Source: Coleofasciculus sp. B1-GNL1-01
GTDB lineage: Bacteria; Cyanobacteriota; Cyanobacteriia; Cyanobacteriales; Coleofasciculaceae
Direction: 5' to 3' (one strand)
Assembly (NCBI GenBank): GCA_040220235.1
Contig: JAVJTO010000059.1
DNA: 64,000 nt
The notes under the pieces are model-generated. The model made no database searches. It saw nothing but the letters and a program-made list of their open reading frames with translations, and had not been told where the DNA came from. Shown here piece by piece: positions 61,106-64,000 of the stretch. The position numbers were made by a program, and so were the translations under genes. Every line of letters starts with the position of its first letter. Within the stretch, counting starts at the first letter, position 1.

Positions 61106-62422
61106 TTGATGAGTGTGATTCCATCAAAACCATGCTATTGGCTGAAAAATGCCCGTGTGCCAATCTCAATGTTACAGGTTGAGGATAGATCGATTTTGGA
61201 GAGTCGAACCTCTGAGGGATTGTGTTTGGTGGATATTCAGGTGGCTGGGGGAAAGGTGGCGCAAGTTGTGCGGGCGAATTCTCAGTCGATCGCAGATACG
61301 GCGGTGGTGGATCTGCAGGGGGGACAGGTTTGGGCGGGGTTTGTGGATGTGCATACTCATCTGGATAAGGGGCATATTTGGCAACGCACGCCGAATCCGG
61401 AGGGGACGTTTGATCTGGCGTTGGAGAGGGTAAAACAGGATAGTTTACAGTATTGGCAAGCGGAGGATGTTTATCGCCGCATGGCGTTTGGGTTGAGGTG
61501 TAGTTATGCCCATGGTACTCAGGCGATTCGCACCCATATTGATGCGTTTGGGGAACAGGCGCGGATTAGTTTTGGCGTGTTTCAGCAGTTACAGCAGGAA
61601 TGGGCGAATCGATTGGTGTTACAGGCGGTTTCTTTGGTGTCGCTGGATTATTATTTGACGCCGGAAGGGGTGAAGTTGGCGGATTTGGTGGCGGAAGTGG
61701 GGGGAGTTTTGGGGGGGGTGGCGTATATGAATCCGGATATTGAGGCGCAGTTGAATCGGGTGTTTCGGCTGGCGCAGGAACGGGATTTGGCGCTGGATTT
61801 TCATACGGATGAGAATGATAATCCGGAGTCGATTTGTTTGAGGAAGGTGGCGGAGGCGGCGCTGCGGTTTCAGTTTGGGCGACAGGTGGTTTGTGGACAT
61901 TGTTGTAGTTTGGCGGTACAGTCGCCGGAGGTGGTGGCGGAAACCTTGGCGCTGGTGAAGGAGGCGGGGATTGGGGTGGTGAGTTTACCGTTATCGAATC
62001 TATTTTTACAGGATCGGACGTTGGGGAGAACACCGCGTTGGCGGGGGGTGACGGTGATTCAAGAGTTACAGGAGTCTGGAATTCCGGTGACGTTGGCGAG
62101 TGATAATTGCCGTGATCCGTTTTTTGGGTTTGGGGATCATGATGTGTTGGAGGTGTTTAATCAAGGGGTGAGAGTTGCCCATTTGGATGGGGTGTATGAG
62201 GAGTCTCCGGCGATGGTGACGAAAACGGCGGCGGATTTGATGGGGTTGGCGGATGTGGGGCGAATTGGTGTGGGGTTGGCGGCGAATCTGGTTTGGTTTA
62301 AGGGACGTAGTTATAGTGAATTGTTATCACGTCCGCAGTGCGATCGCGTGGTGATTCGTGATGGAGTGGCGATTGATACGACGTTACCGGATTACCGGGA
62401 GTTGGATGGGTTGAGTTCGTAG
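61106..62422 (+). CDS. codA: Cytosine deaminase (amidohydrolase family)
   Basis: DVHTHLDK, IRTH.D, DFHTDE, GHCCSL, ASDNCRD. Confidence 0.88.
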   Translation: MMSVIPSKPCYWLKNARVPISMLQVEDRSILESRTSEGLCLVDIQVAGGKVAQVVRANSQSIADTAVVDLQGGQVWAGFVDVHTHLDKGHIWQRTPNPEGTFDLALERVKQDSLQYWQAEDVYRRMAFGLRCSYAHGTQAIRTHIDAFGEQARISFGVFQQLQQEWANRLVLQAVSLVSLDYYLTPEGVKLADLVAEVGGVLGGVAYMNPDIEAQLNRVFRLAQERDLALDFHTDENDNPESICLRKVAEAALRFQFGRQVVCGHCCSLAVQSPEVVAETLALVKEAGIGVVSLPLSNLFLQDRTLGRTPRWRGVTVIQELQESGIPVTLASDNCRDPFFGFGDHDVLEVFNQGVRVAHLDGVYEESPAMVTKTAADLMGLADVGRIGVGLAANLVWFKGRSYSELLSRPQCDRVVIRDGVAIDTTLPDYRELDGLSS

Positions 62423-62588
62423 TTAGGGAACTTTAGCCCTTGAAAAGTGGTATTTCTTGACTTGTGTTAATCGGGGCGGGTTTATTGATTTAAGGGAATT
62501 GTGGCATCGGTTAACAGTCAAACCCGCCCCTACAGAATACCTTTTTTATCCAAAGGTTTAACGGTGGTAGGGCTTGGGAACCAAGCCC

Positions 62589-63419
62589 CTACGAATTCAT
62601 CCGTCGCACCATCCCCATTCCCATCGTGGTTTTCCGCCCGACGCCAGAATAGAGGGCAAAATCGGCTAAAGCATTAATTTGCTGAATCGCTTCTGCTTCA
62701 GGTTTCCCCATAATCCGAAAATTGAGTGCGCCAACACAGCCAATAAATTTACTGCGAGAATCGGCAACTAATTCGGTGTGAATTTCAAAGAAACTGGGAA
62801 ACATAAGCTCGACTAATGTTTTCGGGAATTCTATGCCACTGTATTGATTCCAGCGCTTAATTAAACTATTGAAGACTAATTCCCTTGTGGGTAAGGCACA
62901 ATCATATTTACTCTGACGAAATGCGGTGGGGGTAGAAAAGGCAAAATTCAGAGTGCGATCGCGCGTCGAGGCTTGGTCATATAATTGTTGATAACTGAGA
63001 GCATTTGCCCAACATCCCGGTATTCCTGGTTGGGGTGTTCCCAGAATACTGGTAATCTGTAAGTTGGCTGGACCTAAATGCCAGGGGTGTTCGGGATTCA
63101 GATTTAACCACAGGTGGGTTAATTGACTGAATAAAGTATCATCGAGTAGGGAAATTCGCCACCAACAGGGAGTTCCTGTGGGAATTGGTTTATGATGTTG
63201 CCAGTACAGATTAGCCGATGCTGAATCACTGCGATGCTGAATTTGTAGGGGACTCAGGGTAAAGGCTTTATCGGATTTGGCTTCGTGGAGATAATCGCCT
63301 AGGTTTCTATCGACAGAACTGACTAGGTTAAGAAATAGGGCGTGTAAATGGCGTCCACTGAGAAACTGTGGCGGAATTGGCGATTGGGGAAGCAGGTTTA
63401 GAATTAGGCTATGGGGCAT
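62589..63419 (-). CDS. cas6: CRISPR endoribonuclease Cas6 (cyanobacterial I-D-associated type)
   Basis: MPHSL, GRHLHALF, FTLSPL, TPTAFRQ, GVGRKTTMGMG. Confidence 0.95.
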   Translation of the reverse strand: MPHSLILNLLPQSPIPPQFLSGRHLHALFLNLVSSVDRNLGDYLHEAKSDKAFTLSPLQIQHRSDSASANLYWQHHKPIPTGTPCWWRISLLDDTLFSQLTHLWLNLNPEHPWHLGPANLQITSILGTPQPGIPGCWANALSYQQLYDQASTRDRTLNFAFSTPTAFRQSKYDCALPTRELVFNSLIKRWNQYSGIEFPKTLVELMFPSFFEIHTELVADSRSKFIGCVGALNFRIMGKPEAEAIQQINALADFALYSGVGRKTTMGMGMVRRMNS

Positions 63420-63420
63420 A

Positions 63421-63879
63421 GTTTCAATCCCTGATAGGGATTATAAGTAGGTGGACACAATAAAAGAAGAGCGGTGGAGATCGTCATTCGTCATTTGTCA
63501 TTCGTCCTTTGTAAGGGTTTGAGGCTTGTTTACAAAACTTAGTACAGTGCCGTTTTCTTTTGTCCGAATACTTAGAGGATTTTGACTTGCGGAGGTATGC
63601 ACCGAATAGACACTTTGAATTGATTTTTGTTTCAATCCCTGATAGGGATTATAGAGGATTTCGACATGGATCATGAATCAGCGTCTTTGCACTGGCTAAG
63701 TTTCAATCCCTGATAGGGATTATAGAGGATTTCGACCTAGCTGGGGGATGTAGTCTTTGCTGTATTGACAAGTTTCAATCCCTGATAGGGATTATAGAGG
63801 ATTTCGACTAACATCAACGAACCCCTTTGATTTAAGCAATTTGTTTCAATCCCTGATAGGGATTATAGAGGATTTCGAC
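63421..63879 (-). CRISPR. CRISPR array, 5 repeats / 4 spacers; repeat (minus strand) GTCGAAATCCTCTATAATCCCTATCAGGGATTGAAAC
   Basis: 37-bp repeats at 63629, 63700, 63772, 63843 plus a split repeat at 63421-63586; unique spacers of 42, 34, 35 and 34 nt; the ATTGAAAC end defines orientation, so the leader lies to the right. Confidence 0.95.
63446..63572. mobile_element. 127-bp MITE inserted in the terminal CRISPR repeat, TA duplication
   Basis: Imperfect TIRs AGTAGGTGGACA/TGTCCGAATACT; removal rebuilds the repeat; the 23 bp at 63444-63466 are identical to 17628-17650. Confidence 0.88.
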
Positions 63880-64000
63880 CAGGGATTCTTATAGGCGTAT
63901 TACGTAATCCTAAATGTTTCATAGGGTCGAAGGAAAGATTTATCTTTCTCAGCTCCCATTCAAAACCGAACGAGCAAGTTTCCAAGCATTCGGCTCCTAG

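Follow-up and report, generated by a model that had tools for sequence, protein, structure and literature searches.

Type I-D CRISPR–Cas systems (clusters of regularly interspaced short palindromic repeats, together with their associated proteins) mature their CRISPR RNAs (crRNAs) with Cas6d, which cuts after the stem-loop of the repeat and leaves an 8-nt 5′ handle, as set out in the available parts of the I-D review PMC10212523 and of the Reimann preprint. The same part of PMC10212523 reports that the position of cas6 differs between I-D groups and that Cas6d co-purifies with the I-D complex, and lists as an open question whether Cas6d lasts on the 3′ stem of the crRNA. Here we describe a cas6 gene that starts one nucleotide past a CRISPR repeat, in a 64,000-nt stretch of DNA from Coleofasciculus sp. 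B1-GNL1-01 (assembly GCA_040220235.1, contig JAVJTO010000059.1). This stretch is called the window and its coordinates are used throughout; the genome under study is G000, and the contig bearing the window is C59. Judged by its sequence, the locus is a type I-D crRNA endonuclease gene in a gene order derived within a Coleofasciculus clade of mat-forming cyanobacteria. On balance, we lean towards a reading in which this order arose by duplication, cas6 is carried on the precursor crRNA (pre-crRNA) and freed by its own product's cut, and the unit was kept in this genome after loss of the effector.

The closest described systems are the canonical cyanobacterial I-D loci of Synechocystis (CRISPR1, Cas6-1) and Anabaena 7120 (Alr1566). 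As far as their available descriptions go, they share with our locus the Cas6 family, a 37-nt repeat that forms a short hairpin, and a handle of 8 nt ending in GAAAC, and with the loci of its relatives the set of cas10d, csc2, csc1, cas4, cas1 and cas2. The difference lies in the order. In the canonical loci, cas6 stands in the operon before cas4, and cas4-cas1-cas2 and a leader precede the array, whereas here cas6 follows the array. The available text of PMC10212523 does not mention a fusion of repeat and start codon. CreR and other cr-like RNA mini-arrays (preprints of Shmakov et al. 2023 and Liu et al. 2023) are similar, in the parts available, in that a repeat lies beside a cas gene and a link between repeat RNA and Cas dosage is proposed. 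There, however, the effector complex is guided by a degenerate spacer to a promoter, whereas in our locus Cas6 is proposed to act by cutting the leader of its own message; the Shmakov et al. preprint contains none of the terms 'start codon', 'UTR' and 'translation'. Stand-alone cas6 genes and orphan arrays, as in Anabaena 7120 and in the Cas6 cross-talk of Thermus thermophilus (PMC12102369), likewise have no adjacent effectors and occur beside several CRISPR systems. These genes have their own intergenic region, and the available parts of the Reimann preprint and PMC12102369 do not describe a repeat fused to the ATG.

In the literature covered by our search we met with no account of a cas6 start codon that lies directly against a terminal repeat, and no match for a cas6 gene downstream of a CRISPR array and co-transcribed with it. 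In engineered polycistronic transcripts processed by Csy4 or Cas6, a hairpin is placed directly before the coding region and cleavage sets the 5′ end of the mRNA. Those transcripts are synthetic and the nuclease is supplied separately, whereas the arrangement here is natural and the message would encode the nuclease itself. The parts of the locus (Cas6d, an I-D repeat, a miniature inverted-repeat transposable element (MITE) and a group II intron) are known; their arrangement is a variant.

The cas6 open reading frame (ORF; 62589..63419, minus strand) is intact and encodes 276 aa. It matches PF19308 (3e-75, residues 1-148 over positions 1-147 of the 147-position model) and PF10040 (9e-22), and because the PF19308 alignment runs from residue 1, the start call is correct. 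The N- and C-terminal RAMP domains of Cas6 and its glycine-rich loop are present, the C-terminal motif reading GVGRKTTMGMG in the ORF, and the Cas6 orthologues scanned score above the cut-off of TIGR01877. Orthology to Cas6d is given by 90% identity to the cas6 of the congener G018, which is located between csc1 and cas4. Identity rises to 96–97% with the cas6 of G022 and G019, both of which carry cas10d, csc2 and csc1, and the NCBIfam annotation of the relatives' loci upholds the type I-D assignment made in the original prediction. By analogy with the Synechocystis and Anabaena enzymes, this Cas6 would be expected to cut its repeat with an 8-nt 5′ handle.

The junction itself is as originally predicted. 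The minus strand reads ...TATAATCCCTATCAGGGATTGAAAC-T-ATG, with the ATG at 63419-63417, one nucleotide past the last CRISPR repeat, and the gap is a single T at 63420 (C in the related record L080, see below). The 21-mer ATCCCTATCAGGGATTGAAAC occurs five times in the window against no copy in 100 shuffles, and its fifth core copy, ending at 63421, stops 1 nt before the cas6 ATG. The sequence AGGGA lies 8 nt upstream of the ATG, as claimed. The description of the abutting unit as the last repeat is correct for its 3′ part, but the repeat is not whole: it is split by a MITE of 127 nt.

To place the junction in its family, the Cas6 protein was searched in 52 family genomes, of which 36 matched, and the upstream sequence was compared for 30 loci. 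An intact repeat ends 1 nt before the ATG in seven of these, namely in our genome and in six of the seven congeners with an orthologue, whose Cas6 proteins are 96–98% identical to ours. Other sequence lies upstream in 22 loci, comprising G018 (90% identical) and 21 full-length orthologues of other genera, where another gene precedes cas6; the one locus left over is incomplete. Among 79 loci examined in named public genomes, one further junction record turned up, L080 (Cas6 93% identical), with the order cas2, leader, six repeats and cas6 and the junction ...GGGCTCGAAAC-C-ATG. This 1.7-kb contig (CAZHRQ010000327.1) is filed in a metagenome-assembled genome labelled Rhodobacterales, probably through a binning error. 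An exact-pattern scan of metagenome contigs returned eight with the junction, all reading ...ATTGAAAC-T-ATG. The survey called for by the original prediction thus holds eight Coleofasciculus-type genome records and eight metagenome contigs, and the possibility raised there that the junction might be unique to this strain falls away. A phylum-wide scan for GAAAC-N(0-20)-ATGCCNYAYAGYYT in 401 genomes, which took in just three family genomes besides our own, gave nine matches, with ours as the sole repeat–cas6 junction. The match in G238 was a cas6 without a recognisable upstream repeat, and the other candidates were unrelated ORFs.

What precedes the terminal repeat differs from record to record. 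We counted 13 distinct last spacers across the junction-bearing arrays, and none of the spacers was common to any two of the ten arrays compared. With 13 different last spacers, only the repeat sequence is therefore conserved upstream of cas6. Within it, TATAAT, 20 nt before the ATG, is invariant in all eight genome records and all eight metagenome contigs.

The gene orders of the relatives indicate how the junction arose. That cas6 normally sits inside the operon, as had been stated, holds for G018 and for the other genera. G018 has the canonical order cas3′-cas10d-csc2-csc1-cas6-cas4-cas1-cas2-leader-array (17 repeats) and ends against codA, a cytosine-deaminase-type amidohydrolase gene, whereas G022 reads cas10d-csc2-csc1-cas4-cas1-cas2-leader-array (13 repeats)-cas6 and ends against the same codA. 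In both gene orders, the I-D locus keeps this gene as its right-hand neighbour; in the window it lies at 61106..62422 on the plus strand, and cas6 converges on it as reported. Homology between the relocated cas6 and its G018 counterpart begins exactly at the ATG, passes the stop codon and runs into the native cas6–cas4 spacer, of which a remnant survives at 62423..62588 (minus strand). G022 retains a stub of cas6, its first 38 codons (aa 1-38), between csc1 and cas4. Behind the relocated cas6, and some 20 nt from codA, G017 and G020 retain a stub of cas4 (aa 179-215) with an internal deletion. The G017 locus has a TnpB gene in place of cas1 and an IscB gene between the relocated cas6 and the cas4 stub (L045 7190-8278 and 10319-11641); RNA-guided nucleases of transposons thus reside within a CRISPR locus. 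The native base −1 of cas6 is C in G018 and in the G022 stub, and C also fills the gap in L080. As the gap base of L080 is the native −1 base, the breakpoint lies exactly at the repeat edge.

From an ancestral locus of the order cas3′-cas10d-csc2-csc1-cas6-cas4-cas1-cas2-leader-array, a stretch running from cas6 through the end of the array would have been duplicated in tandem, so that the last repeat came to abut base −1 of cas6. Loss of the first cas6 and of the second cas4-to-array segment would then have left leader-array-cas6, with the terminal repeat as the whole conserved 5′ flank of cas6. Duplication followed by reciprocal loss is, on these comparisons, a well supported account of the structure and evolution of the locus. 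The earlier description of cas6 as a giant final spacer fits by position only: no repeat follows cas6, and the native cas6–cas4 intergenic region stands there instead, with the cas4 stub in two relatives. Inspection by eye of the genomes compared showed no repeat remnant downstream of cas6.

The relocated gene has been maintained. The ratio of non-synonymous to synonymous substitution rates (dN/dS) is 0.06–0.16 among pairs of relocated cas6 genes, at dS values of up to 0.34; the exceptions are the pairs G016–G019 and G016–G020. G016 gives 0.23–0.34 against its nearest relatives, and its Cas6 has an altered C-terminus. Our cas6 gives 0.08–0.16 against relocated copies and 0.10 against G018, and with its nearest relative, G023, it gives 0.08, from 5 non-synonymous and 18 synonymous differences. 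By these ratios the relocated cas6 is under purifying selection. The arrays of the relatives hold 6–28 repeats, while the G023 contig shows just 2, and cognate I-D effector genes occur in four relatives: cas10d, csc2 and csc1 in G022, G017 and G019, and cas10d in G020. Because type I-D systems need Cas6 and these relatives keep effectors and turned-over arrays, cas6 is evidently expressed from its new position. The array of G019 (L046) contains one 502-nt 'spacer' between repeats 26 and 27, presumably an insertion. Further divergent I-D-like genes lie in congeners at G022:C50, G023:C925, G016:C85, G016:C47 and G021:C366, the divergent Csc2 scoring about 225 bits against 370 for the cognate protein and the divergent Cas10d showing 51% identity; by these sequences the genus Coleofasciculus therefore holds at least two I-D lineages.

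The array in the window lies on the minus strand and comprises four perfect 37-nt repeats, one split repeat and one interrupted by an intron, with spacers of 34–42 nt. The perfect repeats, GTCGAAATCCTCTATAATCCCTATCAGGGATTGAAAC (63629..63879; Rfam CRISPR-DR5 at 46.3 bits each, gathering threshold 40), stand at 63879-63843, 63808-63772, 63736-63700 and 63665-63629 and enclose three spacers of 34, 35 and 34 nt; a last spacer of 42 nt (63587..63628), whose matches elsewhere in the genome are chance 14–15-mers, leads to the terminal repeat. The 5′ part of this repeat, GTCAAAATCCTCTA (14 nt, with the change G4A; 63573..63586), is separated by the MITE (63446..63572), inserted at a TA inside the repeat, from a 3′ part of 23–25 nt (63445/63443..63421). 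The latter consists of TATAAT (63445-63440), the hairpin ATCCCT-ATC-AGGGAT (63441-63427) and the 8-nt handle ATTGAAAC (63428-63421). From the type I-D literature, the Cas6 cut is predicted between 63429 and 63428. Because the target TA of the MITE was duplicated (63574-63573 and 63445-63444), the part facing cas6 retains TATAAT, the hairpin and the handle unbroken.

The element has the marks of a MITE: it is short, non-coding and multicopy, with inverted termini and a TA duplication. Its ends read AGTAGTCGGAC and GTCCACCTACT, with imperfect terminal inverted repeats AGTA..GGAC, and the genome holds 15 copies of at least 110 nt at 72–92% identity, mostly TA-flanked. By analogy, we take the family to be TA-targeting and Tc1/mariner-IS630-like. 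Its members carry an internal run of GACGAAT/GACAAAT heptamers; other copies lie, for example, at C132:15042-15168 and C102:239993-240114, and one lies upstream of a second array on contig C26.

The original prediction placed the start of the array at 63879, but a spacer, a repeat stub and an intron end lie further upstream. The first of these is a spacer-sized stretch of 36 nt (63880..63915), which parts the first whole repeat from the interrupted one and differs from the intron flank in G019. It is preceded by GAAAC (63916..63920), the five bases with which the interrupted repeat ends and the 3′ exon starts, and by the 3′ end of a group II intron with domains V–VI, their catalytic AGC hairpin and a bulged A (63921..64000). 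The intron matches RF00029 over the full model (1-77) at 63998..63921 with 51.1 bits (gathering threshold 40; E 2.4e-8). It continues past the window and leaves the contig 60 nt further on; the contig holds only about 140 nt of its 3′ end, and the 5′ exon junction lies outside the assembly. Within the repeat, the intron sits one base past the hairpin and 5 nt before the repeat end. In G019:C8 (L164 397-612), from another species, the same 145 nt of intron 3′ end recur at 99% identity and at the same position of a repeat-like unit; GAAAC comes next, then a stretch of spacer size and a unit resembling a repeat. Class IIC group II introns insert behind terminators, and the position found here suggests an intron lineage that lands in like manner behind the CRISPR hairpin. 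From the arrays on C59 and C26, nine spacers or stretches resembling them were compared with the genome and gave only chance matches of 14–17 nt (E≥0.13); a spacer partly complementary to a promoter of the same genome, as in CreR/CreA-type mini-arrays, was not among them.

How, then, could cas6 be expressed? Because the gap measures 1 nt and the last spacers vary, only read-through from the array or the TATAAT of the repeat can drive the gene, and expression from array-borne signals, be it the pre-crRNA transcript or the TATAAT, is strongly indicated. With either signal, the predicted Cas6 cutting site is in or beside the leader of cas6 itself, and if read-through occurs, self-cleavage is likely by analogy with the characterised enzymes. 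In the mechanism that we favour, cas6 would be the 3′-terminal cistron of the pre-crRNA transcript. Cas6 would bind the hairpin of the terminal repeat and cut 8 nt from the repeat end; the hairpin would pass to the last crRNA, and the released cas6 mRNA would carry a 9-nt 5′-OH leader, AUUGAAACU. Synthesis of Cas6 would thereby be tied to transcription of the array and to the activity of Cas6 itself, with either sign of feedback possible.

Predictions for the DNA and RNA around the junction bear on this mechanism. On the minus strand between 62300 and 64000 no terminator is predicted, and the 1-nt gap leaves no room for one. Nor does the same scan predict a sigma-70 promoter with both hexamers on this strand; the plus strand has 2 promoter-like sites against 4.2 expected. 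The repeat hairpin folds with −5.8 kcal/mol alone and −8.0 kcal/mol in the whole repeat, whereas the cut product, with −1.6 to −3.6 kcal/mol, is predicted to be nearly unstructured. The predicted probability that the start codon is unpaired is 0.02–0.10 in six of seven relocated contexts, as opposed to 0.56–0.79 in canonical ones. The small CUAUG-CCC-CAUAG hairpin would pair the start codon, but as it contributes no more than about −2.3 kcal/mol and L080 does not have it, we gave it no weight.

Several observations weigh against cas6 being freed from the pre-crRNA by its own product. In four of the eight genome records, the terminal repeat carries changes immediately 3′ of the predicted cut, and its handle reads ATTCAAAC, ATGGAAAC, ATGCAAAC or CTCGAAAC. 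The changes are confined to the first four positions, the last AAAC and the TATAAT are unchanged, and so is the hairpin of the variants save for an A-to-C change at the stem base of L080. In sequence terms this shows relaxed or altered constraint 3′ of the cut, and it may mean weaker cleavage. Read-through in our genome would moreover have to cross the structured MITE and the upstream intron, whose 5′ side is unassembled, and the TATAAT could start a separate mRNA inside the hairpin that escapes Cas6. Public sequencing runs are neutral on a transcript, its 5′ ends and its strand: 20 runs contain portions of the stretch, at most 0.39 of its words in any one, and in four that were compared (three labelled RNA and one DNA) the contigs show near-identical patterns. 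The MITE-split junction is present in those data sets, and a joint of 62592 to 63483 is seen in the RNA-labelled runs only, one of its sides measuring 23 nt. On the evolutionary side, a genome with both full tandem copies was not found among those searched, and the tandem duplication is a reconstruction. Finally, the assembly of our genome comprises 172 contigs and is 100% complete by markers; the gene absences reported below are absences from that assembly.

The last of the expression signals deserves separate consideration. If the TATAAT of the repeat fired a cas6 mRNA from within the hairpin, the leader would be about 15–20 nt, the message would be without a complete Cas6 site, and the junction would be a compact promoter plus leader with neither self-processing nor feedback. 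We hold this to be possible, though unlikely. It is in keeping with the invariance of TATAAT across genome records and metagenome contigs and with its regeneration by the TA duplication of the MITE in our genome, and AGGGA would be released from the hairpin in such a transcript. Cyanobacterial promoters, furthermore, often have no −35 element. However, a sigma-70-type site with both hexamers is not predicted on the minus strand, and the same TATAAT stands in every repeat, those of the canonical G018 included, so that nothing about it is particular to cas6. The role of the repeat in crRNA biogenesis accounts just as well for the conservation of TATAAT.

The original prediction took the cut to be repressive: by binding or cutting, Cas6 would mask or remove the sole ribosome-binding site, AGGGA, and thereby repress its own translation. 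The geometry for this is conserved. AGGGA makes up the hairpin's 3′ arm and, with a predicted unpaired probability of 0.04, would almost always be paired; a cut would leave the 9-nt leader. The Shine–Dalgarno (SD) argument on which it builds is nevertheless weak. By manual pairing AGGGA is a weak match to the anti-SD sequence, the motif reads AGGGC in L080, and canonical cas6 orthologues have no consistent SD-like motif upstream, which makes SD-dependent translation improbable. Cutting could equally activate translation by removing the hairpin, given the weak fold of the product. We therefore regard negative feedback as doubtful and retain, for the self-processed transcript, either sign.

The fate of the I-D system in this genome bears on what the unit does at present. 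A tblastn search of the assembly for Cas10d, Csc2, Csc1, Cas3′ (E<=1e-3), Cas1d and Cas4d returned nothing cognate, and a search for the Csc2 family (TIGR03157) found no member in it but one in each of the three congeners searched. The type I-D signature of cas10d with csc2 and csc1 is thus absent from the assembly, and cas2 is a fragment, 60–70% identical and in two pieces. This pseudogene belongs to a second I-D remnant (C26:64344-65062; L001/L057), which also holds a conserved I-D leader and four perfect repeats; a fifth unit there is degenerate and broken up by short palindromic elements. A third I-D-type leader (C21:45560-45754) precedes a single degenerate repeat, CCCCTGAATCCCTACCAGGGATTGAAAC, which could be a regulatory solo repeat; a unit similar to it follows the intron in G019:C8. 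In the nearest relative, G023 (96% complete, 1440 contigs), cas10d was likewise not found, and only a divergent Csc2 was. The array–cas6 unit appears to have been kept after loss of the effector.

Other Cas6-family genes are present in the genome, a point on which the original prediction had asked for a check. A type III locus is encoded as well, and its arrays bear the handle ATGGAAAC, which differs from ATTGAAAC in one base; the genome further has an I-MYXAN-type locus and an Alr1482-like Cas6 of 374 aa. The suggestion that the module acts in trans would fit both with these genes and with the survival of cas6 beyond the effector genes. Most likely, Cas6 still matures crRNAs from the two small I-D-type arrays on C59 and C26, and these are possibly supplied to the resident type III system. 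The 374-aa Cas6 (TIGR01877 1.5e-26; the length of Anabaena Alr1482) lies in the region C85:46800-56000 (L056 10030-16685), where its neighbours are three ORFs that lack annotation and a protein of 898 aa that weakly matches IS481/rve-type transposases; a CRISPR-associated transposon or the remains of a type III-D system may account for the region.

A bolder combination of these elements seems to us rather unlikely. It holds that Cas6 makes its own message, that a cassette of array plus enzyme outlived the I-D effector and may now serve type III, and that the edge of the cassette may record a capture by Cas1–Cas2. In such a cassette, cas6 would have neither promoter nor leader of its own and would be translated only from the 3′ tail of the pre-crRNA, with enzyme output set by array transcription and free Cas6. 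The cassette would have outlived its effector in at least our genome and probably in G023, and in G016 it would have outlived its cognate one.

We consider it improbable that the array–cas6 unit of our genome is a non-functional relic awaiting decay, its junction without a present role. The missing cognate effector and adaptation genes, the degraded cas2 and an array reduced to few units and struck by both MITE and group II intron would agree with such a state. However, cas6 is intact, differs from the clade consensus by a single private residue (275N) and shows a dN/dS of 0.08 against G023, a genome that is itself without a detected cas10d and has only the divergent Csc2; cas2, by contrast, has decayed. 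Least credible of all is an origin by integrase, in which Cas1–Cas2 joined a long fragment of the cas locus, from base −1 of cas6 onward, to the spacer-side edge of the repeat as an oversized 'spacer': that edge is the site of spacer-side integration, the left breakpoint does fall exactly at the 3′ boundary of the repeat and the single gap base C of L080 is the native −1 base of G018 and the G022 stub, but the inserted segment is not followed by a repeat in any genome, exceeds 1 kb and hence lies far over the length ruler for prespacers, and the stubs are equally explained by tandem duplication without special chemistry.

How the dosage of Cas6 is matched to the supply of crRNA is poorly understood. 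If Cas6d stays on the 3′ stem of the crRNA, it is needed in proportion to the number of crRNAs, and a natural locus in which the coding region of cas6 begins one base past a Cas6 site offers a test case for self-processing and for a coupling between nuclease synthesis and transcription of the pre-crRNA. The junction has been conserved through a dS of about 0.3 and a complete turnover of spacers. Moreover, the locus documents the reordering of a cas operon by duplication and reciprocal loss with the intermediate stubs still visible, and it indicates that an array–cas6 unit can persist under purifying selection past the loss of its effector. Should cas6 and its array indeed form a cassette that makes its own message, this Coleofasciculus clade would hold a self-contained array plus processing enzyme.

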